From NCBI RefSeq assembly GCF_013315695.1, contig NZ_CP054353.1: DNA of 64,000 nt. One strand, written 5' to 3'. Position 1 is the stretch's first letter, and every line of letters starts with the position of its first letter. A model generated the notes under the pieces. That model had not been told where the DNA came from and searched no databases. It was given only the letters and a program-made list of their open reading frames with translations. Of the stretch, positions 8,834 through 26,897 are shown in pieces. Origin of the DNA: Escherichia coli. Lineage in GTDB: Bacteria; Pseudomonadota; Gammaproteobacteria; Enterobacterales; Enterobacteriaceae. A program made the position numbers and the translations under genes.

Positions 8834-9688
8834 ATGTTGTCCAAACAAATCCCGCTTGGCATCTATGAAAAAGCGCTCCCCGCCGGGGAGTGCTGGCTGG
8901 AACGCCTGCGACTGGCAAAAACGTTGGGCTTCGATTTTGTCGAGATGTCGGTAGATGAAACGGACGAGCGCCTGTCGCGCCTCGACTGGAGCCGCGAGCA
9001 GCGTCTGGCGCTGGTGAATGCGATTGTTGAAACCGGCGTGCGTGTGCCGTCCATGTGCCTTTCTGCCCATCGTCGTTTCCCGTTGGGCAGCGAAGATGAC
9101 GCGGTGCGGGCGCAGGGGCTGGAGATTATGCGTAAAGCCATCCAGTTCGCCCAGGACGTTGGCATTCGCGTGATCCAGCTGGCGGGCTATGACGTTTACT
9201 ATCAGGAAGCCAATAACGAAACGCGTCGTCGTTTCCGTGACGGCCTGAAAGAGAGCGTTGAGATGGCGAGCCGCGCGCAGGTGACGCTGGCGATGGAGAT
9301 CATGGATTACCCATTGATGAACTCCATCAGCAAGGCGCTGGGCTACGCGCACTATCTCAACAACCCGTGGTTCCAGCTCTACCCGGATATCGGCAACCTG
9401 TCGGCGTGGGACAACGATGTGCAGATGGAATTGCAGGCCGGAATAGGGCATATCGTCGCGGTGCATGTGAAAGACACCAAACCTGGCGTCTTCAAAAACG
9501 TGCCATTTGGCGAAGGCGTGGTGGATTTCGAACGTTGCTTTGAAACGCTCAAACAGAGTGGCTATTGCGGGCCGTACCTGATTGAGATGTGGAGCGAAAC
9601 GGCGGAAGACCCGGCGGCAGAAGTGGCGAAAGCGCGTGATTGGGTGAAAGCGCGCATGGCCAAAGCAGGCATGGTGGAGGCTGCATAA
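8834..9688 (+). CDS. ulaE: UlaE, L-ribulose-5-phosphate 3-epimerase
   Basis: 284 aa, [25 protein letters not shown]..., TIM-barrel sugar-phosphate epimerase. Confidence 0.9.
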
Positions 9689-10323
9689 TGCAAAAGCTAA
9701 AACAGCAGGTGTTTGAAGCCAACATGGATCTGCCGCGCTATGGGCTGGTGGTGATCAAGCCCAGCGGCGTCGCCTACGAAACCATGAAAGCAGACGATAT
9801 GGTGGTGGTTGATATGAGCGGCAGGGTGGTGGAAGGGGAGTATCGCCCATCTTCCGACACCGCGACGCATCTCGAACTCTACCGTCGTTACCCGTCGCTT
9901 GGCGGCATTGTCCATACCCACTCCACTCATGCCACCGCATGGGCGCAGGCGGGGCTGGCGATCCTGGCGTTAGGCACCACGCACGCTAACTACTTCTTTG
10001 GTGATATCCCGTGTACGCGTGGATTAAGCGAAGAAGAGGTGCAGGGTGAGTATGAACTGAACACTGGCAAAGTGATTATCGAAACGCTGGGTGACGCCGA
10101 GCCGCTGCATACGCCGGGAATTGTGGTGTATCAGCACGGGCCGTTCGCCTGGGGGAAAAATGCCCACGATGCGGTGCATAACGCGGTGGTGATGGAGGAA
10201 GTGGCAAAAATGGCGTGGATTGCGCGCAGTATTAACCCACAACTGAATCACATCGACAGCTTCCTCATGAATAAACACTTCATGCGTAAGCACGGTCCTA
10301 ACGCCTATTACGGGCAGAAGTAA
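9688..10323 (+). CDS. ulaF: UlaF, L-ribulose-5-phosphate 4-epimerase (class II aldolase family); carries an in-frame 17-codon deletion
   Basis: ATG at 9688 overlaps the ulaE stop; 211 aa, [30 protein letters not shown]...; the AraD/SgbE/UlaF family has ...[25 protein letters not shown] here. Confidence 0.8.
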
Positions 10324-10330
10324 GCAGTGC

Positions 10331-10380
10331 GCCCCGGAATTATTACCTCCTGCGGGATGTAATTGGTCTGATTCCGGGGC
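10331..10380. other. Perfect 10-bp inverted repeat with 30-nt spacer, downstream of ulaF
   Basis: gccccggaat (10331-10340) and attccggggc (10371-10380); no flanking T-run. Confidence 0.5.
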
Positions 10381-10419
10381 CGCTTCAGTTAAAAAATCAT
10401 ATAAACAACAGGTGTTTTT

Positions 10420-10971
10420 ATGGCTATCAATGGATTGTTTGTCAGAACGGATCCGCAGCGTCGCCGCTATGGCGTTGCGTTACTTGTGGGTGTGCTTTCA
10501 GGAATTATTTCAGCATTTGTTAAATGGGGAGCGGAAGTCCCCTTGCCACCGCGCACATTTTCCGGTGGTCGCGATGAATTTAACCCGCCGTATATCTTTC
10601 TACGAGATTATTTAGGTATCGACCCAACCCAAACTGTGTATACCTTCTCGGAACATATTATCAACCCGGTGATGGTGACGCATATCATCTTCTCCCTGGT
10701 TTTTGCGATAGGGTATTGTGTTGTCGCGGAAATTTTCCCGAAAGTGAAATTATGGCAGGGGATATTAGCAGGGCTTATTGTGACAGTGGCAGTCCACGGT
10801 ATATTTTGCCCGGCGCTGAATTTAACGCCGCCGCTCACTCAATTGCCTTTTGACGAATATGCGTCTGAAATCTTGGGGCATATTTTCTGGTTCTGGATAA
10901 TAGAGATTATGCGCCGCGACTTACGTAATCGCATTACTCATGAGCCGGATCCGGAAGTCGCAATTCGGTGA
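10420..10971 (+). CDS. Small inner-membrane protein, DUF1440/YagU-like
   Basis: 183 aa, ATG with AGGTG RBS 5 nt upstream; four hydrophobic segments; motifs [69 protein letters not shown] resemble YagU-type proteins (from memory). Confidence 0.65.
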
Positions 10972-10980
10972 ATAACCGTA

Positions 10981-11006
10981 TAAAAAAGCCCCCTGCGAAG
11001 GGGGCA
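10981..11006 (-). terminator. Rho-independent terminator for yjfY
   Basis: gccccctgcgaagggggc hairpin; the T-run follows on the minus strand. Confidence 0.6.
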
Positions 11007-11045
11007 AAGCAAACTATGGCAATGTTTCGTTGGTTATACCTGGTG

Positions 11046-11321
11046 CTAGCGATAAATATCCGCGCTGGCGTGCATATTGCCGTTACTCCCCGGTTCCCGC
11101 ATTAGAATTACGTGGTAGTACGTTGCGCCCTGCGCATCTGTCTCTTCATTTAATGCCTGACGTGCTTCGCTTTCAGTGGCGAAATTATGATTGATATAAA
11201 TCACGCCTAAGCTCTGTACGTCGTCCATATTTCTGGACTGGTGGTTATTAATTTCAATGGCTGCCCATGTATTTGCACTTAGCAAAAGCACAGCCAGAAG
11301 GGCTAAAACACGACTGAACAT
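11046..11321 (-). CDS. yjfY: YjfY, DUF1471 small secreted protein
   Basis: 91 aa, MFSRVLALLAVLLLSANTWAAIEINN..., signal peptide. Confidence 0.8.
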   Translation of the reverse strand: MFSRVLALLAVLLLSANTWAAIEINNHQSRNMDDVQSLGVIYINHNFATESEARQALNEETDAQGATYYHVILMREPGSNGNMHASADIYR

Positions 11322-11629
11322 AGATACCTCCTCGACGGCTGACTTTGTGTGCTCTCCTCTGTGATGATCTTCTGATTTAATTTTAATCAATGATAAAGAA
11401 GTTGATGGTGACCATTTCTGATGCAGTTGTTCGAAAAAACACTGTGACGGAATGTGATGAACTTCAAATCAGGGAGTTAGTTCTTTTGAGCGAAAGATGA
11501 GATTTATTTGTCGGCTGGCCTTGAGTTTAGCGGGGCATACAAGTACTATAACGCGTCATTTTTCAGCCGACCTTTAACACGTTCCTTGCCTCCCCGGGAT
11601 TCGGCTGACCCAGACAGGAGGCTGAATAA

Positions 11630-12043
<414 letters not shown>

Positions 12044-12049
12044 TTTCTG

Positions 12050-12596
<547 letters not shown>

Positions 12597-12625
12597 TCGG
12601 TCACGGTCCATTAATACGACTTTGA

Positions 12626-13087
<462 letters not shown>

Positions 13088-13107
13088 TTCGTTATTCAAC
13101 GAGACGT

Positions 13108-13140
13108 AAAAACGCCGACCATTGGTCGGCGTTTTGCTTT
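13108..13140 (+). terminator. Rho-independent terminator of the rpsF-priB-rpsR-rplI operon
   Basis: aaaacgccgaccattggtcggcgtttt hairpin followed by T-run. Confidence 0.8.
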
Positions 13141-13157
13141 CTATTTTTCGTCAGGTA

Positions 13158-13952
13158 TTAGTTTCGCAAGTAGATCCATTCACCATTCTCTTGTGTCCAT
13201 AAGTCAGGATGGTTTGCTGGCGTTAGATGCATACGATCACTCCTTATGTCTCGGTCCTGCGGCACTCGCTCGAAACCTAAACCCGAGTAGATTGCTGCTG
13301 AATTTGATAAGGAACGTAGACCAATTTTCAAATCATGGGGTAAATCAGAATACGCGTTTAGCAATGCAGCAATGATGAATCCGAGGGCATTAGAAACGCC
13401 TGTAACAGTGCGAAGTTGGTCGATATAAAGATCGATTGTTGGTAGTTCAGATGACCAGCAATTAGGCATTTGGGCAGGAAGGGTTACAACGTATCCTATC
13501 GTTTGGCCGGTATAGTCTGGAGTACCATAACCAGGTCCCAAAACCACTTCGTGTATTGTGTATTTACTGTTGGGTTCGAAGGATTCGACATCTTGCAATA
13601 AATATTTCAGTTCTGCGGTTAACCTCGCACCCGCGTAAGCTTTATTGTATTTCTGGGCGTGAATATTATCTAATGTAGCTTCATGGTTCCATCCAAAAGA
13701 ATTATCACCATTCATTGTTACTCCATCGTAAGCATTACACTTCGTTGCTAACTTATTGAATGCTTGCCAGTCAGAGAGATCTAGTTTGTGGATCTCAACA
13801 GTACGTCTGCCATCGCAATTATGATCTCTTCCACGATTTGGCAGTAATGTAGCACGTGCATATTGATGAAATTTTAATTTTACTGGTTTGTCGGTGGACG
13901 AAAAATAGGGTGAATATGCAGGAAATGAATAAATAGTCGTTGGTAATGTCAT
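13158..13952 (-). CDS. yjfZ: YjfZ, uncharacterized protein
   Basis: 264-aa ORF, AT-rich relative to neighbours; no motif I can assign. Confidence 0.7.
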   Translation of the reverse strand: MTLPTTIYSFPAYSPYFSSTDKPVKLKFHQYARATLLPNRGRDHNCDGRRTVEIHKLDLSDWQAFNKLATKCNAYDGVTMNGDNSFGWNHEATLDNIHAQKYNKAYAGARLTAELKYLLQDVESFEPNSKYTIHEVVLGPGYGTPDYTGQTIGYVVTLPAQMPNCWSSELPTIDLYIDQLRTVTGVSNALGFIIAALLNAYSDLPHDLKIGLRSLSNSAAIYSGLGFERVPQDRDIRSDRMHLTPANHPDLWTQENGEWIYLRN

Positions 13953-14172
13953 TGTAATGTTACCTGTTTAATGTTTTTATAAATATCGCAGCTGATGTTC
14001 ACAGAAAAAGAATCGATATTAATAAAAATAAGTTTGTTTTCTGAAGTAGTGAAAATAGCGGATGGTGAAAGATATTAATATCAAAAATCGCTCATTATGG
14101 ATATAACGATGCCCCCGGGGAGAAAATGACTTCCACGCCTTCTACCATACATTCTTGTTGTGCGGTATGTAA

Positions 14173-14520
14173 TTATTCTACGCTGTTGGTATCGGTGCGT
14201 TTGTTAATCATCTGGTTAACCAGCCACAAAAAGCCATTGAGAAAGTTATTGATTCTACATGGAATTATTATATTTCTAATCCCTGGTTTTTAAAAGTTGT
14301 GCATAGTGAAAATCAAAGTAAAGGTGTGCATTATGCAAAATCACAGCGTCTCTTAGAAATTAACCATACGCACTTGCAGTTAATGGAATCCTTATTGGAT
14401 GAAGGGAAGAAACACAATATTTTTAAGCCAGATAGCGACCCATTGCAGGTGAATATTAATATTGCTGCGCTTGGGGGATATTATTTGATCAACCAGCATA
14501 CGCTTGGCCTGGTTTATCTG
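14173..14520 (+). pseudogene. ytfA: ytfA remnant: C-terminal fragment of a TetR-family regulator, no HTH domain, 3' end abutted by the IS
   Basis: Frame opens after TAA at 14170-14172 and reads ...[22 protein letters not shown]...[24 protein letters not shown] (ligand-domain-like), then runs into the IS left end. Track ORF 14299..14790 is a chimera of this frame and IS sequence. Confidence 0.5.
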
Positions 14521-14574
14521 GTGCGCCGTAAAACCCCGTCCTTCAGGGCGGGGATATACGGCGCGGTTTTCCAC

Positions 14575-15006
14575 CTAACCAGGTGTTTGCTGTTGTTCAA
14601 TGTATTGACGGATGGCGGATATTGGCGCACCTCCGCAGCTACTGGCAAAATAGCCAGGACTCCACAAAACGCCTTTGTAGTAATACCTGACTGCAATATC
14701 TGGTCGATCTCGTCGCAGTCACCTACCCGATACGCCTTTGAGGCTGTTTACCAGACTGGATATCGCCAGTTTGGGAGGATAGTTAATTAACAAATGGACG
14801 TGATCTGGTTCGCCATCCATTTCAACCAGTTCAGCTTCAAAATCAGCACATACATTTGAAAAGTAAGTGCGTAGTTTTTCTGTCGCGTCATAGTCAAAAA
14901 TCTGACGTCGGTATCTGGTGACAAAGACCAGGTGAACATGCATCAGGAAAACACAATGCCTTCCCCGTCGGATATCGGTTTCTTTATTCACAGACCAAAG
15001 TATCAT
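14575..15006 (-). pseudogene. tnpA: IS200-type TnpA (HUH/Y1 transposase) inactivated by an in-frame TGA
   Basis: ATG 15006: MILWSVNKETDIRRGRHCVFLMHVHLVFVTRYRRQ...[31 protein letters not shown](14719-14721)[50 protein letters not shown]. HxH motif is upstream of the stop; the conserved SPGYFA...GGAP C-terminus lies after it. Confidence 0.8.
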
Positions 15007-15013
15007 TTGGCCT

Positions 15014-16222
15014 GTGAAACGACTACAGGCATTTAAATTCCAGTTAAGACCCGGTGGTCAACAGGAGCGTGAAATGAGGCGCTTCGCAGGCGCATGCCGT
15101 TTCGTTTTCAATCGTGCTCTGGCGCTTCAGAATGAGAATCATGAGGCCGGTAATAAATACATCCCTTACGGGAAAATGGCTTCCTGGCTGGTTGAGTGGA
15201 AAAACGCCACTGAAATGCAATGGCTTAAAGATTCGCCCTCACAGCCATTGCAACAGTCACTGAAAGACCTTGAGCGGGCTTACAAAAACTTCTTCCAGAA
15301 GCGGGCTGCTTTTCCCCGATTCAAAAAGCGGGGACAGAATGATGCATTCCGCTACCCGCAGGGCGTTAAGCTCGATCAGGAAAACAGCCGTATTTTTCTG
15401 CCGAAACTTGGCTGGATGCGCTACCGGAACAGCCGTCAGGTCACGGGTGTTGTGAAAAATGTCACTGTCAGCCAGTCCTGCGGTAAGTGGTACATCAGTA
15501 TTCAGACAGAAAGTGAAGTATCCACTCCGGTTCACCCTTCAGCATCAATGGTCGGGCTGGATGCTGGCGTGGCTAAACTCGCCACGCTGTCAGATGGCAC
15601 AGTCTTTGAGCCTGTAAACAGTTTTCAGAAAAACCAGAAGACGCTGGCGAGACTTCAGCGACAGTTAAGCCGCAAGGTCGAATTCAGCAATAACTGGCAG
15701 AAGCAGAAACGCAAAATACAGCGACTGCATTCCCGTATCGCAAATATCCGCAGGGACTACCTTCACAAAGTCACAACGACCGTCAGCAAAAACCACGCAA
15801 TGATAGTCATTGAGGATTTGAAGGTCAGCAACATGTCAAAGTCAGCAGCGGGTACGGTCAGCCAGCCGGGGCGCAATGTCCGGGCAAAATCAGGTTTAAA
15901 CCGTTCGATACTGGATCAGGGCTGGTATGAAATGCGCCGCCAGCTTGAGTACAAGCAGCTCTGGCGTGGCGGTCAGGTGCTTGCTGTTCCGCCAGCGTAC
16001 ACAAGCCAGCGTTGCGCGTGCTGTGGTCATACAGCGAAAGAAAATCGCCTGTCACAAAGTAAATTCAGATGCCAGGCATGTGGATATACAGCGAACGCTG
16101 ATGTAAATGGCGCTCGTAACATTTTAGCGGCGGGGCACGCCGTTCTTGCCTGTGGAGAGATGGTGCAGTCAGGCCGCTCGTTGAAGCAGGAACCCACCGA
16201 AATGATTCAGGCGACAGCCTGA
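15014..16222 (+). CDS. tnpB: TnpB (IS605 OrfB family; RuvC-like RNA-guided nuclease family), apparently intact
   Basis: 402 aa from GTG 15014; N-terminal [12 protein letters not shown]...RFVFNRAL; RuvC-I GLDAGV, RuvC-II VIEDL, zinc finger CACCGH...CQACGY, Ruv[13 protein letters not shown]. Confidence 0.85.
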
Positions 16223-16290
16223 ACGAAGCAGGGATCCACGTCCTTCAGGGCGTGGAGGATGTCAACATATCAGTATGGTTTCCCCCCAGG
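16080..16290 (+). ncRNA. Candidate TnpB right-end guide RNA (omega/reRNA) spanning the tnpB 3' end and right-end hairpin
   Basis: Inferred from family architecture only; right-end hairpin at 16238-16257 is visible; no promoter or processing site identified. Confidence 0.3.
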
Positions 16291-16356
16291 CACTGGAAGC
16301 CAGACGTAAGGTCATCAAAGAGACGCTCCTTAGCTGGCTTTTGGTTGATCCTTCAT

Positions 16357-16995
16357 CTACCGCGCACGAATAAAACTGCCATCCGGCTGGCGGGTAAACA
16401 GGACCTGTTGATTATTCCCCGTATCAATGGTTAAGCCCGTCACCACGCCGCTGGCGTTCTGGCGGATTTTCACCATCTGCCCATTTTGCAAATTACTCAG
16501 CGGCTTACCCGCGCCTTCTACCTGCGCCATTGCATAGACATCGGTAGCGGGCAGTCCGTGGTCGCGGAACAGCTGCGCCATCGTTTTACCGGGTTCGACA
16601 CGGTAAGAGCGCCATTGATTATCAATTCCGCTATCTGGCTGGAATGGTTGCGTTTGGGTAGTTTGCGGCTGTTCTTCTGGCTGGCCTTCCTGTATAGGTT
16701 CTGGAGCGACCGGAGCCACCTGATCAGGATCATTTTGTGGTGTGACTAATTGCGCCCGCAGCTGTTCTTCTGTCGGCGGTTGTGATTGCGACTGAATATC
16801 TAACTGCGCTTCACGCGTCACCACCGGCGCGTTGGGCGTATCATCAGATGGAAGCAGAAATCCGACCACCAATACAATGGCGGCAATAATGATCCCCCGA
16901 CGATGCATCGGCGGCAGCGGGTCCATGAAGCGAAAATTGTCCGGCGCGTGCCAGACTTTCTCCAGGGTTGGTTTTAGTTCAAAGCGCCCGGGCAT
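16357..16995 (-). CDS. ytfB: YtfB, OapA/LysM-domain cell-division protein
   Basis: 212 aa from internal Met ([46 protein letters not shown]...), single TM, Pro/Gln-rich linker. Confidence 0.85.
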
Positions 16996-17213
16996 GGTTT
17001 CCTCCTGCTCCGCGTCTTGTTCCTCAATCATAGCCTATGAATAAGCTAACGCTATGATGTCCGTGGTAAACCCGCCTTTATTATATTCATACGGGATATT
17101 GCTATTGTTTCTTTTTCCCCGGGATTTGTCATCATTCCTGCGACAAAGTTTTACCCAAAGAAGTGTGGCTGATATGCTGCCCGCTACTTTTATATCCTAA
17201 GAAAGGAAATACG

Positions 17214-17834
17214 ATGACCACCCCAACTTTTGACACCATCGAAGCGCAAGCAAGCTACGGCATTGGTTTGCAGGTAGGGCAACAACTGAGTGAATCTGGC
17301 CTGGAAGGGCTGCTGCCAGAAGCACTGGTTGCAGGTATTGCCGATGCGCTGGAAGGCAAACATCCGGCTGTTCCGGTTGATGTGGTGCATCGCGCGCTGC
17401 GTGAAATCCACGAACGCGCCGATGCCGTTCGTCGTCAGCGTTTCCAGGCGATGGCTGCTGAAGGTGTGAAATACCTGGAAGAAAACGCCAAAAAAGAAGG
17501 TGTGAATAGCACCGAATCTGGCCTGCAATTCCGCGTGATCAACCAGGGTGAAGGCGCAATTCCGGCACGTACCGACCGCGTTCGTGTTCATTACACCGGT
17601 AAACTGATCGACGGCACCGTGTTTGACAGCTCCGTTGCTCGTGGTGAACCCGCTGAATTCCCGGTTAATGGCGTGATCCCTGGCTGGATTGAAGCACTGA
17701 CTCTGATGCCGGTAGGTTCTAAATGGGAACTGACTATCCCGCAGGAACTGGCATATGGCGAGCGCGGCGCAGGCGCATCCATCCCTCCGTTCAGTACCCT
17801 GGTGTTTGAAGTCGAACTGCTGGAAATTCTCTAA
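17214..17834 (+). CDS. fklB: FklB, FKBP-type peptidyl-prolyl cis-trans isomerase
   Basis: 206 aa, [25 protein letters not shown]..., FKBP C-terminal domain. Confidence 0.9.
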
Positions 17835-17842
17835 GCAGCGCA

Positions 17843-17866
17843 TTCTGTTCCCCTCGAACCAGAGGG
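17843..17866 (+). terminator. Hairpin terminator after fklB
   Basis: cccctcgaaccagagggg stem-loop just after the stop; weak T-run. Confidence 0.45.
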
Positions 17867-18141
17867 GAGCAGGCATTCAGCAATAAACCCTTCAGTTTGC
17901 CAAAAGGCGCTATTTTGTGTTGCAAAGACCCCGTAAGCGTGTATTTTTGTGAGCTGTTTCGCGTTATCACCGTGATATGACACTCATTTTAAACATAAAA
18001 TTAACATTAGATCTAAATCTTAGTATTCATCCCGCGTATTGTTACCTAATATCGATGAGTCCCGATACAGATTCGTCGTATCATAGACTGACTAAAGGCC
18101 GTAGAGCCTGAACAACACAGACAGGTACAGGAAGAAAAAAC

Positions 18142-19554
18142 ATGGTAGATCAGGTAAAAGTCGTTGCCGATGATCAGGCTCCGGCTGAACAGTCGCTACG
18201 GCGCAATCTCACAAACCGACATATTCAGCTTATTGCCATTGGCGGTGCCATTGGTACAGGGCTGTTTATGGGGTCCGGCAAAACGATTAGCCTTGCCGGG
18301 CCGTCGATCATTTTTGTTTATATGATCATTGGTTTTATGCTCTTTTTCGTGATGCGGGCAATGGGGGAATTGCTGCTTTCGAATCTGGAATACAAATCTT
18401 TTAGTGACTTCGCTTCCGATTTACTCGGGCCGTGGGCGGGATATTTCACCGGCTGGACTTACTGGTTCTGCTGGGTTGTAACCGGTATGGCAGACGTGGT
18501 GGCGATCACGGCTTATGCTCAGTTCTGGTTCCCCGATCTCTCCGACTGGGTCGCCTCGCTGGCGGTGATAGTGCTGCTGCTGACGCTCAACCTCGCCACC
18601 GTGAAAATGTTCGGTGAGATGGAGTTCTGGTTTGCGATGATCAAAATCGTCGCCATTGTGTCGCTGATTGTCGTCGGCCTGGTCATGGTGGCGATGCACT
18701 TTCAGTCACCGACCGGTGTGGAAGCGTCATTCGCGCATTTGTGGAATGATGGCGGCTGGTTCCCGAAAGGTTTAAGTGGCTTCTTTGCCGGATTCCAGAT
18801 AGCGGTTTTCGCTTTCGTAGGGATTGAGCTGGTAGGTACCACCGCTGCGGAAACCAAAGATCCAGAGAAATCACTGCCACGCGCGATTAACTCCATTCCG
18901 ATCCGTATCATTATGTTCTACGTCTTCGCGCTGATTGTGATTATGTCCGTGACGCCGTGGAGTTCGGTAGTCCCGGAGAAAAGCCCGTTTGTTGAACTGT
19001 TCGTGTTGGTGGGGCTGCCTGCTGCCGCCAGCGTGATTAACTTTGTGGTGCTGACCTCTGCCGCTTCTTCCGCTAACAGCGGCGTCTTCTCTACCAGTCG
19101 TATGCTGTTTGGTCTGGCGCAGGAAGGTGTGGCACCGAAAGCGTTCGCTAAACTCTCTAAGCGCGCCGTACCCGCGAAAGGGCTGACCTTCTCCTGCATC
19201 TGCCTGCTCGGCGGCGTGGTGATGCTGTATGTGAATCCCAGCGTGATTGGTGCGTTCACGATGATCACGACCGTTTCCGCGATTCTGTTTATGTTCGTCT
19301 GGACGATTATCCTTTGCTCGTACCTGGTGTATCGCAAACAGCGTCCGCACTTGCATGAGAAATCAATCTACAAGATGCCGCTCGGCAAGCTGATGTGCTG
19401 GGTATGTATGGCATTCTTTGTGTTCGTGGTCGTGCTGCTGACACTGGAAGATGATACCCGCCAGGCGCTGCTGGTTACCCCGCTGTGGTTTATCGCTCTG
19501 GGGCTGGGCTGGTTGTTTATTGGTAAGAAGCGGGCTGCTGAACTGCGGAAATAA
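18142..19554 (+). CDS. cycA: CycA, D-serine/D-alanine/glycine transporter (APC family)
   Basis: 470 aa, 12-TM amino-acid permease, MVDQVKVVADDQAPAEQSLRRNLTNRHIQLIAIGGAIGTGLFMG. Confidence 0.9.
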   Translation: MVDQVKVVADDQAPAEQSLRRNLTNRHIQLIAIGGAIGTGLFMGSGKTISLAGPSIIFVYMIIGFMLFFVMRAMGELLLSNLEYKSFSDFASDLLGPWAGYFTGWTYWFCWVVTGMADVVAITAYAQFWFPDLSDWVASLAVIVLLLTLNLATVKMFGEMEFWFAMIKIVAIVSLIVVGLVMVAMHFQSPTGVEASFAHLWNDGGWFPKGLSGFFAGFQIAVFAFVGIELVGTTAAETKDPEKSLPRAINSIPIRIIMFYVFALIVIMSVTPWSSVVPEKSPFVELFVLVGLPAAASVINFVVLTSAASSANSGVFSTSRMLFGLAQEGVAPKAFAKLSKRAVPAKGLTFSCICLLGGVVMLYVNPSVIGAFTMITTVSAILFMFVWTIILCSYLVYRKQRPHLHEKSIYKMPLGKLMCWVCMAFFVFVVVLLTLEDDTRQALLVTPLWFIALGLGWLFIGKKRAAELRK

Positions 19555-25033: not shown

Positions 25034-25774
25034 ATGTTAGATCAAGTATGCCAGCTTGCACGGAATGCAGGCGATGCCATTATGCAGGTCTACGACGGGA
25101 CGAAACCGATGGACGTCGTCAGCAAAGCGGACAATTCTCCGGTAACGGCAGCGGATATTGCCGCTCACACCGTTATCATGGACGGTTTACGTACGCTGAC
25201 ACCGGATATTCCGGTCCTTTCTGAAGAAGATCCTCCCGGTTGGGAAGTCCGTCAGCACTGGCAGCGTTACTGGCTGGTAGACCCGCTGGATGGTACTAAA
25301 GAGTTTATTAAACGTAATGGCGAATTCACCGTTAACATTGCGCTCATCGACCACGGCAAACCGAGTTTAGGTGTGGTGTATGCGCCGGTAATGAACGTAA
25401 TGTACAGCGCGGCAGAAGGCAAAGCCTGGAAAGAAGAGTGCGGTGTGCGCAAGCAGATTCAGGTCCGCGATGCGCGCCCGCCGCTGGTGGTGATCAGCCG
25501 TTCCCATGCAGATGCGGAGCTGAAAGAGTATCTGCAACAGCTTGGCGAACATCAGACCACGTCCATCGGCTCTTCGCTGAAATTCTGCCTGGTGGCGGAA
25601 GGGCAGGCGCAGCTGTACCCGCGCTTCGGACCAACGAATATTTGGGATACCGCCGCTGGTCATGCTGTGGCTGCAGCTGCCGGAGCGCACGTTCACGACT
25701 GGCAGGGTAAACCGCTGGATTACACTCCGCGCGAGTCGTTCCTGAATCCGGGATTCAGAGTGTCTATTTACTAA
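25034..25774 (+). CDS. cysQ: CysQ, 3'(2'),5'-bisphosphate nucleotidase
   Basis: 246 aa, [22 protein letters not shown]..., inositol-monophosphatase-family motifs WLVDPLDGT and WDTAAG. Confidence 0.9.
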
Positions 25775-25985
25775 ATTCAGATGGCAGAAACAGTGTATTT
25801 CCTGATTCTGCCATCCTGATTTCTCCCAACCTAAAAAGTTATAAATAAAAAGAGATTGTATTTAAAGTGCAAAAATTCAATTGCTAATAAGTTACATTTT
25901 AATAATGAGCGTTTTTTGATAGTTTACTTCTATAGTGAGGTATTTAATGGCGACATAAAGTAACCAAATAAAATAAGGTTGTCAT

Positions 25986-26897
25986 ATGTTACCCAGGATC
26001 AGACACAATAATTTTATTGGTGCAGTGGAGTTATTTGTAAAGTCTTCGTATACAAAAACACATTCAAACAATTTTTTTAACAATATCCAGCATGCATTTA
26101 AGAAAAAAGATTGGATTTCGAATTATGATAGCCTGTTAACTTTGCGGGAGTTCTTTCGTTGCGCAACTCAGATTGGTAAAAGTAGTTATCAGGTGCTTTC
26201 ATCAAAAAATGAAACTGTTCACGCCATGGATAATTTTCTTATCAGTTTCAGCCTTAAAGATAACGGTGCCGAATATACAATGACATTGCGAGGTAGTGGA
26301 TTTGAATACGAAGAAATTCCCATAACAATAAATGAGTATAACTCATTCATGGATTTCAAAAACCGCGAGTTTCCGTTAGAACAAAACAGAAGATTGTATG
26401 CCTGTGATATTTTGCAGAAAAAACAGTCTGACATACCAAAAAGGATTAAAGGTTATATTCGCCAGGCGATTGGTGACGTGTCTTTAGGTTATGCCTTATT
26501 GGAGGATATAGTAAGCAAATTAAAACGGGGTAAATTTGAACTCCAAATACCAGGCGGTGGAATTAAAGAATGCGATGGATGGTATATTTACGAAAAAATA
26601 ATTGATGATAATTTTGCCATAGTCATAGAATCTTTGGGCTTTGCGCTTAAAATCTATGGAGGGGATGAACGTTTTCGTAATGGTTCCTCTGTTGTTTTGG
26701 AGGATGAAGATTACTCTCTTATTTATAATTTTCTGGTTAATGCAGGTTGCCAACAAGTCGAATTAGCCGAACAAGTGGATGCGATAGTAAGTGCGAATCT
26801 GGCCGTAGATAGTGATATTACCGAAGAGGAGATTTGCGAGAAATATAAATCAACCATTGAGGCGTTTAAAAAAGAGCAACTAGCGTTACCAGTATGA
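25986..26897 (+). CDS. ytfI: YtfI, uncharacterized AT-rich ORFan
   Basis: 303-aa ORF, markedly AT-rich, no recognisable domain. Confidence 0.6.
   Translation: MLPRIRHNNFIGAVELFVKSSYTKTHSNNFFNNIQHAFKKKDWISNYDSLLTLREFFRCATQIGKSSYQVLSSKNETVHAMDNFLISFSLKDNGAEYTMTLRGSGFEYEEIPITINEYNSFMDFKNREFPLEQNRRLYACDILQKKQSDIPKRIKGYIRQAIGDVSLGYALLEDIVSKLKRGKFELQIPGGGIKECDGWYIYEKIIDDNFAIVIESLGFALKIYGGDERFRNGSSVVLEDEDYSLIYNFLVNAGCQQVELAEQVDAIVSANLAVDSDITEEEICEKYKSTIEAFKKEQLALPV

Follow-up and report, generated by a model that had tools for sequence, protein, structure and literature searches.

The AT-rich stretch at 13158-14520 of the window (the whole 64,000-nt stretch of Escherichia coli DNA that was analysed) is very probably the result of three mutually independent events at the variable site that separates rplI from ytfB, and not of a single cassette. 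The three parts concerned, yjfZ, a remnant of the regulator gene ytfA, and IS609, are ordinary, and all have already been annotated. An earlier note had read them together as one decayed, horizontally acquired unit, but they do not share one distribution: across 5426 complete E. coli genomes, yjfZ is found in 2524, the operon with the intact TetR gene from which ytfA derives in 3122, and IS609 at an identical junction in 1744. The hallmarks of a mobile cassette are likewise lacking. No tRNA gene occurs in 9000-19000, the neighbouring ORFs and annotation contain no mobility genes besides those of IS609, searches of phages gave no match to yjfZ, and the deletion junctions at the site show microhomologies of 6-8 nt only.

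The composition of the stretch is nonetheless atypical and not native-like. Its GC content is 39.2% against a mean of 51.1% for the window, and only 0.8% of equal-length windows reach a value as low; the core at 13701-14500 (35.9%) is the third-lowest 800-bp stretch of the window. The coding sequence of yjfZ has 41.6% GC (GC3 34%) and the spacer upstream of it (13953-14116) 29.9%, in agreement with the earlier description of this gene and its upstream region as distinctly AT-rich. That spacer is probably the promoter region of yjfZ, and the AT-richness of gene and promoter region is a property of these sequences themselves. The ytfA fragment is also low in GC (36.5%), but this it has inherited from the intact regulator gene, which is AT-rich in whichever host it occurs. 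Decay as the source of its AT-richness was considered and rejected, with the same codons having 35.6% GC in the intact gene of strain B and 36.3% here. Positions 14117-14219 do not belong to the upstream region of ytfA, as they derive, in antisense orientation, from a short-chain reductase gene that was deleted.

The left border of the variable region falls just past a hairpin terminator (13109-13135; 12 pairs followed by a T-run in a terminator scan) that is common to the convergent genes rplI and yjfZ, and identity with strain B and E. whittamii stops at about 13140-13143. Both E. coli and Escherichia sp. E1V33 have the spacer at 13953-14116, and no counterpart turned up in the other four loci covering the flank (E. 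whittamii, L010, Klebsiella spallanzanii, and Entomohabitans); the available E. albertii locus ends before this flank and so falls outside the spacer comparison. An Rfam scan of 11000-17500 gave no match above threshold inside the studied stretch, and matches in a promoter-pattern scan were no more numerous than in shuffled sequence. In K-12, an H-NS site together with divergent constitutive sigma-70 promoters has been reported in this spacer, in the table row 'yjfZ < HNS > ytfA' (PMC3946193).

The gene yjfZ (13158-13952, minus strand) is an intact ORF of 264 aa that matches Pfam DUF2686 (PF10887; YjfZ/YjiC family) over residues 5-264 with E=4.5e-150 and 498.8 bits (cut-off 25), making it a full-length member. 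The family was found in Escherichia and Shigella only. When 1.84 billion representatives were searched exhaustively with HMMER, the matches consisted solely of Escherichia-type fragments, paralogues of the YjiC type, and, within three long proteins, short stretches that were partial or repetitive; NCBIfam, PADLOC, and PHROGs gave no match. In plasmid collections, the only tblastn matches were to records 0.37-4.9 Mb long, which are all classified as non-mobilizable and resemble mislabelled chromosome pieces. With no phage match and only these chromosome-like plasmid records, a mobile reservoir of yjfZ was therefore rejected. The ORF is intact in seven of seven alleles at dS up to 0.10, with a dN/dS of approximately 0.3, and IS1 insertions, frameshifts, and truncated forms also occur. 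The gene is genuine and under weak constraint, and its family is confined to Escherichia. It also bears marks of acquired DNA: its composition is atypical, it is polymorphic in presence, and its promoter region is bound by H-NS in K-12, because of which it may be silenced.

The ancestral state of the rplI-ytfB site was a six-gene operon with a divergent gene for a 215-aa TetR regulator. The operon encodes an MFS transporter, a fumarate-reductase-like flavoprotein, a family-I CoA-transferase, an enoyl-CoA hydratase, a xylose-isomerase-like TIM-barrel protein, and an SDR reductase. The regulator features a TetR_N domain at residues 19-61 and TetR_C_29 at 83-201. The intact ytfA-like regulator that the earlier note had proposed to look for at this locus was indeed found, both in the 3122 E. 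coli genomes that keep it with the operon and in four other species. In E. albertii, E. whittamii, K. spallanzanii, and Entomohabitans, the operon and TetR gene are syntenic at rplI-ytfB, and none of these carries yjfZ. Across five hosts, the TetR gene has 39-43% GC and the operon 51-56%. By analogy with other TetR regulators in such a divergent arrangement, the intact protein would keep the operon repressed until its C-terminal domain is occupied by a ligand from the pathway; this role, and the substrate of the operon, are predicted from gene arrangement and family membership.

The operon and its promoter region were lost, along with TetR codons 1-82, through two deletions. The larger, of approximately 7.3 kb, has CAGGGA as its junction microhomology, and the other, of 545 bp, has TCCGCCAC. 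What they left is a 103-bp scar of the reductase gene, joined to codons 83-215 of TetR, and the TetR remnant so produced is what is called 'ytfA'. The scar (14117-14219, minus strand) lies between the two junctions and corresponds to approximately codons 30-63 of a deleted 3-ketoacyl-ACP-reductase (SDR) gene. It is 80-84% identical to the intact reductase genes of five lineages. Descent from a diverged functional reductase was considered and rejected, as the differences are spread over all codon positions rather than concentrated at third positions and an in-frame stop is common to the window, K-12, and E1V33.

The left fragment of ytfA (14224-14518, plus strand) comprises TetR codons 83 to approximately 180 and is 97.3% identical to positions 11721-12016 of the strain B TetR gene. 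It consists solely of C-terminal ligand-binding and dimerisation domain. The frame at 14299-14520 matches TetR_C_29 alone (profile positions 27-98 of 119; E=1.8e-14), TetR_N has no match in it, and the remnant aligns from codon 83 of an orthologue whose HTH occupies residues 19-61. The earlier identification of ytfA as a TetR C-terminal part without HTH is therefore correct, and the window contains no full-length, HTH-bearing ytfA frame that would contradict it. That reading had placed an IS next to ytfA; an IS is present, but it lies inside the gene, with the right fragment beyond it (16266-16373, plus strand; the last 35 codons and the stop). This fragment aligns colinearly with both K-12 and intact TetR genes, shares 17 nt with the 3' end of the convergent ytfB, and is labelled in RefSeq as a partial TetR pseudogene. 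A TetR C-terminal domain is thus recognisable in the window, but IS609 splits it, and it is not one polypeptide here. The dN/dS of the remnant is 0.68-0.78 against close intact alleles, compared with 0.03-0.07 between intact alleles, and in strain 405 ytfA is frameshifted. The remnant is incapable of binding DNA, its regulatory target is gone, and its evolution is nearly neutral.

IS609, of the IS200/IS605 family, occupies 14519-16265 inside ytfA (boundaries from the K-12 alignment, name from RefSeq). Its ends are uncertain by 1 nt owing to a shared C, and there is no target duplication beyond that one ambiguous C when compared with the empty site of K-12. The ends are those of the IS200/IS605 type, with direct subterminal hairpins, no terminal inverted repeats, and no target-site duplication. 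The left-end hairpin (inverted repeat I1) spans 14523-14564 with its core at 14534-14554, and the right-end hairpin core (direct-repeat family D3) at 16236-16256 is 90% identical to the left core, both on the plus strand. The tnpA gene for a Y1 transposase (14575-15006, minus strand) has a TGA at codon 96 of 143 (14719-14721); the resulting 95-aa ORF matches Y1_Tnp with E=8.4e-26, and a single C/A difference at 14720 separates it from the 143-aa gene of strain EcPF7. The transposase gene is thus present and probably inactive here, and because of the nonsense codon this copy probably cannot move on its own. The tnpB (insQ) gene (15014-16222, plus strand; RefSeq annotation of the near-identical EcPF7 locus) is an intact ORF of 402 aa with matches to OrfB_IS605 (5e-34), Cas12f1-like TNB (1.1e-24), and HTH_OrfB_IS605 (3.9e-14). 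The identical junction recurs in 1744 genomes, IS609 was found in none of the intact TetR genes, and the copies in other lineages are 1.6-2.5% different, often with stops or frameshifts. IS609 inserted after the deletions, at codon 180/181 of the remnant, and the majority of genomes with the deletion allele inherited it. The insertion is old and fixed, and it is decaying in place.

The forms of the locus can be arranged accordingly. Strain B has the order rplI-operon-TetR-ytfB, VTB96775v has the strain B form with yjfZ in addition, K-12 has yjfZ and the remnant, and the window has the K-12 form with IS609 added. The deletion allele with yjfZ occurs in 2225 of the 5426 genomes, so that the deletion and operon alleles account for roughly 41% and 58% of E. 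coli genomes, respectively, and most E. coli that have the operon are without yjfZ. In Escherichia sp. E1V33, the scar recurs together with its derived changes, and the 849-bp segment with yjfZ (13146-13994; alignment and BLAST) is missing. Because the scar and its changes are shared, the deletion allele is old, an age that across species rests on this single non-coli genome. As for yjfZ, the junction sequences would fit either acquisition by E. coli or loss from E1V33. Approximately 1.08 kb of AT-rich DNA with yjfZ and its promoter region appears to have replaced, in the E. coli lineage, a 42-bp spacer beside the rplI terminator, a step that is in part reconstructed. The ytfA remnant is 1-3% from intact alleles in related E. 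coli, while the scar 3 bp away is 16-20% different; recombination that homogenises the shared ytfA/ytfB flank could produce such low divergence in ytfA beside a diverged scar.

It is scarcely credible, given these observations, that one acquired cassette, decaying as a unit, left behind yjfZ, ytfA, and the IS. The stretch is AT-rich throughout, a transposable element adjoins it, the presence of yjfZ varies between genomes, and the spacer is bound by H-NS in K-12, all of which speaks for such a cassette. However, the three parts differ in age as well as in distribution, the parent operon of ytfA is native-like in GC (50%) and syntenic in other genera, and microhomology deletions, not the IS, truncated ytfA. 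K-12-type alleles lack IS609, as do all intact TetR genes, and neither a nearby tRNA gene nor mobility genes other than those of IS609 accompany the stretch. Three separate events thus remain the preferred account. It is also very improbable that the ytfA remnant is functional, as an HTH-less ligand-binding or dimerisation protein that serves as a decoy or as a dominant-negative partner of other TetR proteins. The K-12 form retains a complete C-terminal domain in an ORF of 108 aa downstream of a constitutive promoter (PMC3946193), and in a bioRxiv screen CRISPRi of ytfA altered the expression of dapE and bssS (10.64898/2025.12.20.695731). That effect, however, could be polar on the overlapping convergent ytfB or on yjfZ, and a functional remnant sits poorly with its elevated dN/dS, with the frameshift in strain 405, and with the splitting of the gene by IS609 in 1744 of the 2225 genomes that have the deletion allele.

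A further possibility, which we consider unlikely, is that yjfZ is a dispensable ORF heading for loss and that its resemblance to GNAT proteins is an artefact of a poor model. The gene is missing from 53% of complete genomes, has no known function, sits behind an H-NS-bound promoter region, and is sometimes interrupted or truncated; the structural model has a mean pLDDT of 43, and a GNAT signal is absent at the sequence level. Against dispensability, yjfZ stays intact in every allele compared while the neighbouring tnpA, tnpB, and ytfA gather stops, and its paralogue yjiC persists in E. albertii as well as in 4882 of 5426 genomes, and 64 columns of the YjfZ/YjiC alignment are invariant. Against an artefact, two independent structure-comparison methods return GNAT folds only. 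The remote homology search suggested by the earlier note produced no significant sequence match to an acetyltransferase, and a low-confidence model matches GNAT folds and no others.

The details of this model are as follows. Its N-terminal region is of low confidence (pLDDT below 50 over residues 1-50 and 61-131), and AlphaFold run on the single YjfZ sequence gave a pLDDT of 34. By sequence, YjfZ matches no GNAT family in Pfam (DUF2686 only) or NCBIfam, and the single sequence had no match among PDB sequences; the best acetyltransferase match of the family profile against the PDB was at E=0.75. As the family profile gave no significant hhalign match to RimI or SpeG, sequence-level GNAT homology is not claimed. 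Judging by the low-confidence model, YjfZ probably has a GNAT-type acyl-CoA transferase fold. It may be speculated that YjfZ and YjiC are highly diverged GNAT-fold acyltransferases and, separately, that the operon is an ancient polymorphism under balancing selection, two ideas that we regard as tentative and rather unlikely. Under the former, the family would comprise chromosomal, Escherichia-only predicted acyltransferases with a substrate that is perhaps host-related. Under the latter, the presence or absence of the 8-kb carboxylate-catabolism operon would be older than E. coli, with recombination moving alleles between backgrounds.

The significance of the region lies mostly in clean-up. 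A gene that still appears in lists of regulators and in CRISPRi screens, ytfA, is the HTH-less tail of a predicted repressor, and the operon of this parent regulator is absent from K-12 and present in most E. coli. Strains such as B, C, and ATCC 11775 keep the intact TetR system and are suited to work on ytfA. Present in only 47% of complete genomes, yjfZ is therefore a poor species marker, and a published 'YjfZ' assay appears to target yjiC instead. The GNAT-like prediction provides a first testable idea for DUF2686. AT-richness alone did not mark out a single acquired unit here.

Comparison with known systems places each part in context. YjiC, the DUF2686 paralogue encoded between iraD and uxuR, is approximately 40% identical to YjfZ and of similar length, and like yjfZ its gene is AT-rich, single, restricted to Escherichia, and preceded by a very AT-rich upstream region. 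The two differ in locus and in distribution, with yjiC being far more widespread, and they have no flank homology; a duplication that took in the promoter was sought through such homology, and none was found. With the GNAT superfamily (e.g., SpeG and AAC(6')), YjfZ has no significant sequence similarity, and the CoA-binding motif A, Q/R-x-x-G-x-G/A, is not evident in YjfZ, which reads N-A-L-G-F-I. The TetR/AcrR regulator of E. coli B (WP_001318432.1) is the orthologue of ytfA at the same rplI-ytfB position, with codons 83-215 being 97% identical to the remnant in the window; unlike the remnant, it has a TetR_N HTH, its own promoter region, and a 7.5-kb operon, all of which are deleted here. 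K-12 ytfA (b4205, annotated as a TetR/AcrR-family pseudogene) features the same start at codon 83, the same reductase scar, and yjfZ as its neighbour, whereas the copy in the window is split by IS609 at codon 180/181; the two sequences diverge by 3% in ytfA and by about 9-10% in the scar. Finally, IS609, whose relatives include IS608 and ISDra2, has in the window the same arrangement of a Y1 transposase gene divergent from tnpB, and it is set apart by the nonsense codon in tnpA.

The stretch at 13158-14520 is a patchwork of three parts, namely a gene module confined to Escherichia, the remnant left by a deletion, and an IS609 insertion of long standing; the source locus of the remnant is common to other Escherichia species and two further enterobacterial genera. 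These separate histories replace the single decayed, horizontally acquired cassette proposed in the earlier note. In the window, E. coli rpsF-priB-rpsR-rplI (11648-13087) is followed by yjfZ, ytfA, the IS element, ytfB and fklB. Strain EcPF7 is 100% identical over 13100-14560, and its RefSeq annotation lists yjfZ (DUF2686), a partial TetR/AcrR pseudogene, an IS200/IS605 tnpA, a TnpB gene, a second partial TetR pseudogene and ytfB. The AT-richness claimed for the stretch is borne out by the composition profile, with a GC content of 39.2% against 51.1% for the window; 0.8% of same-length windows are as low. By part, GC is 41.6% in yjfZ (GC3 34%), 29.9% in the spacer at 13953-14116 and 36.5% in the ytfA fragment.

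Elsewhere in the window, two 800-bp stretches are more AT-rich (25751-26550 and 63151-63950, GC 33.3% and 33.6%). An RpsF leader (Rfam RF02893, 110 bits) lies where expected upstream of rpsF at 11566-11650 (+), and a 596-bp insertion relative to K-12 between ulaF and yjfY (10386-10981) contains a YagU-family gene (10420-10971, plus strand). Annotated ulaF is 636 nt in the window vs. 687 nt, and the ula region is 90.8% identical to K-12.

The site differs in form among complete E. coli genomes. In strain B, the rplI-ytfB interval holds six opposite-strand genes, encoding an MFS transporter, a 690-aa FAD_binding_2 flavoprotein, a 513-aa CoA-transferase, an enoyl-CoA hydratase, a xylose-isomerase-like TIM-barrel protein and an SDR reductase, and a divergent 215-aa TetR gene, the intact ytfA-like regulator for which a search had been suggested. 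Strain VTB96775v has the strain B arrangement plus yjfZ. The closest solved relatives of the flavoprotein are those of fumarate reductase, succinate dehydrogenase and L-aspartate oxidase. The intact TetR protein features TetR_N (19-61) and TetR_C_29 (83-201) domains, while the ytfA frame matches TetR_C_29 only (positions 27-98 of 119) and not TetR_N, as expected from the earlier description of a regulator lacking its HTH. When the intact protein was scanned against 100,044 species genomes, followed by tblastn, the operon and TetR gene were again located between rplI and ytfB in E. whittamii, E. albertii, Klebsiella spallanzanii and Entomohabitans teleogrylli, and likewise in a divergent E. coli-labelled strain; none of them carries yjfZ. 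Remoter TetR relatives (~38% identity) occur in Alphaproteobacteria, where one has homologues of the reductase, the TIM-barrel protein and the CoA-transferase as neighbours.

In five hosts, the intact TetR gene has 39-43% GC vs. 51-56% for its operon, and the codons retained in ytfA have 35.6% in strain B and 36.3% in the window. The AT-richness of ytfA goes back to the intact gene and did not arise through decay. The TetR gene with its promoter region is at 37-45% GC in every host (11476-12123 of L005, a locus with an intact TetR gene; orthologues in L008, L009, L011 and L013), a stable compositional contrast with the facing operon inside one syntenic locus. The transporter end of the operon is variable between hosts: three TRAP-type transporter-like ORFs replace the MFS gene in the divergent E. 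coli-labelled strain (L010, 866-3709), and K. spallanzanii and Entomohabitans (L011, 1342-2262; L013, 407-1351) have an additional multi-pass membrane gene between rplI and the MFS gene, judged by eye to be EamA/DMT-like.

BLAST of the window against the strain B and VTB96775v loci gave three colinear blocks: 13000-14119 matches VTB96775v, and this match ends 102 bp before the MFS stop; 14117-14219 matches the interior of the reductase gene (80-84%); and 14223-14518 matches TetR (97.3%). The form found in K-12 and the window therefore carries two deletions. The first removed ~7.3 kb with a crossover in CAGGGA. The second, of 545 bp with a crossover in TCCGCCAC, cost the reductase gene its 5' end and TetR its codons 1-82, along with the 212-bp promoter region; ytfA begins at codon 83. 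Among 5426 complete E. coli genomes, yjfZ is present in 2524, the operon in 3122 and the deletion allele with yjfZ in 2225; by subtraction, yjfZ and the operon would occur together in ~300 genomes and the operon without yjfZ in ~2800.

The deletion allele is also found in Escherichia sp. E1V33, which lacks yjfZ but shares the reductase scar and the AT-rich spacer, and in which TetR starts at codon 84. The scars of the window, K-12 and E1V33 have derived changes in common, including an in-frame stop. Scars differ from intact reductase genes at 15-21 of 103 positions, spread over all three codon positions, whereas intact genes differ from each other mainly at third positions. This pattern fits neutral drift after a single old deletion. 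The adjacent ytfA remnant and the intact alleles of related E. coli are only 1-3% apart, and substitutions in the remnant look neutral (dN/dS 0.68-0.78 vs. 0.03-0.07 between intact genes). Recombination may keep the common ytfA/ytfB flank uniform, while the allele-specific scar would be beyond conversion.

Relative to strain B and E. whittamii, 1076 bp comprising yjfZ and its AT-rich upstream region stand in place of a 42-bp spacer. E1V33 is missing an 849-bp segment (13146-13994 in the window); since it has the K-12-type left junction (CTATT), loss of yjfZ there appears to be the simpler reading. An intact 264-aa ORF, yjfZ matches Pfam DUF2686 (E=4.5e-150). A word-indexed search through 5.8 billion proteins placed all its homologues in Escherichia/Shigella, and an exhaustive search of 1.84 billion representatives returned the same family plus, in three long proteins, short matches that were partial or repetitive. 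YjiC (~40% identity, with an E. albertii member) is the sole other lineage found. Phages gave no match, and plasmid matches were only to large records resembling chromosome pieces. The ORF is intact in 7/7 sampled alleles (dS up to 0.10; dN/dS 0.19-0.52), and copies that are IS1-disrupted, frameshifted or truncated also exist; by these sequence measures, yjfZ is a real gene under weak constraint. An AlphaFold model built on 16 aligned family sequences reached pLDDT 43 and pTM 0.39; a GNAT-like fold is likely for YjfZ, and sequence methods gave no confirmation of this.

A published list has ytfA among TetR-family regulators, carried by some E. coli and by all E. albertii and E. fergusonii strains examined (PMC6790063), a CRISPRi screen terms it a pseudogene (bioRxiv 10.64898/2025.12.20.695731), and the K-12 yjfZ-ytfA spacer is reported to have an H-NS site and constitutive promoters in both directions (PMC3946193). 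Another paper names yjfZ an "E. coli-specific conserved signature protein" (PMC11057252). The "YjfZ" qPCR/Sanger primers and probe published there have 0-2 mismatches to yjiC (3001-3831 of L086, the yjiC locus) vs. 7-13 to yjfZ (13158-13952), and yjiC is present in 4882/5426 complete genomes; because of this fit and these counts, the published assay appears to target yjiC. Within the available text of the few papers in the searched library naming yjfZ, ytfA or DUF2686, there was no account of the deleted operon, the scar or any DUF2686 fold. All of the elements are annotated already and the mechanisms are ordinary, namely deletion at microhomologies, IS insertion and the spread of alleles by recombination; modestly new are the reconstruction of the deletions, the age that the allele appears to have and the prediction of a GNAT-like fold for DUF2686.

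The IS element, named IS609 in RefSeq, is present, though within ytfA and not beside it as the earlier note had it, with the last 35 ytfA codons at 16266-16373. It spans 14519-16265, ends +/-1 nt owing to a C common to the K-12 empty site, and comparison with that site revealed no target duplication beyond this C. A junction at exactly this ytfA site occurs in 1744/5426 genomes, and a chimeric query joining the intact TetR 5' half to the IS609 end found 0/5426; entry into the remnant thus postdates the deletion. IS609 is carried by ~78% of deletion-allele genomes. Copies at the same site in five other lineages are 1.6-2.5% different, with frequent stops or frameshifts in tnpA or tnpB. The element is an old insertion undergoing decay at this site. 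Codon 96 of tnpA, Leu in EcPF7, is TGA in the window. Of 12 differences from EcPF7 over 9.4 kb, 11 fall within 476 bp of tnpB (15430-15905), a clustering suggestive of gene conversion from another IS609 copy. An HgcC-family RNA match below the Rfam threshold (16155-16278 (+), 24.7 bits, E=0.014) spans the tnpB 3' end and the right end of IS609, the expected place of a TnpB guide (omega) RNA. The hairpin cores (14534-14554 and 16236-16256) repeat each other in direct orientation, in keeping with the IS200/IS605 family.
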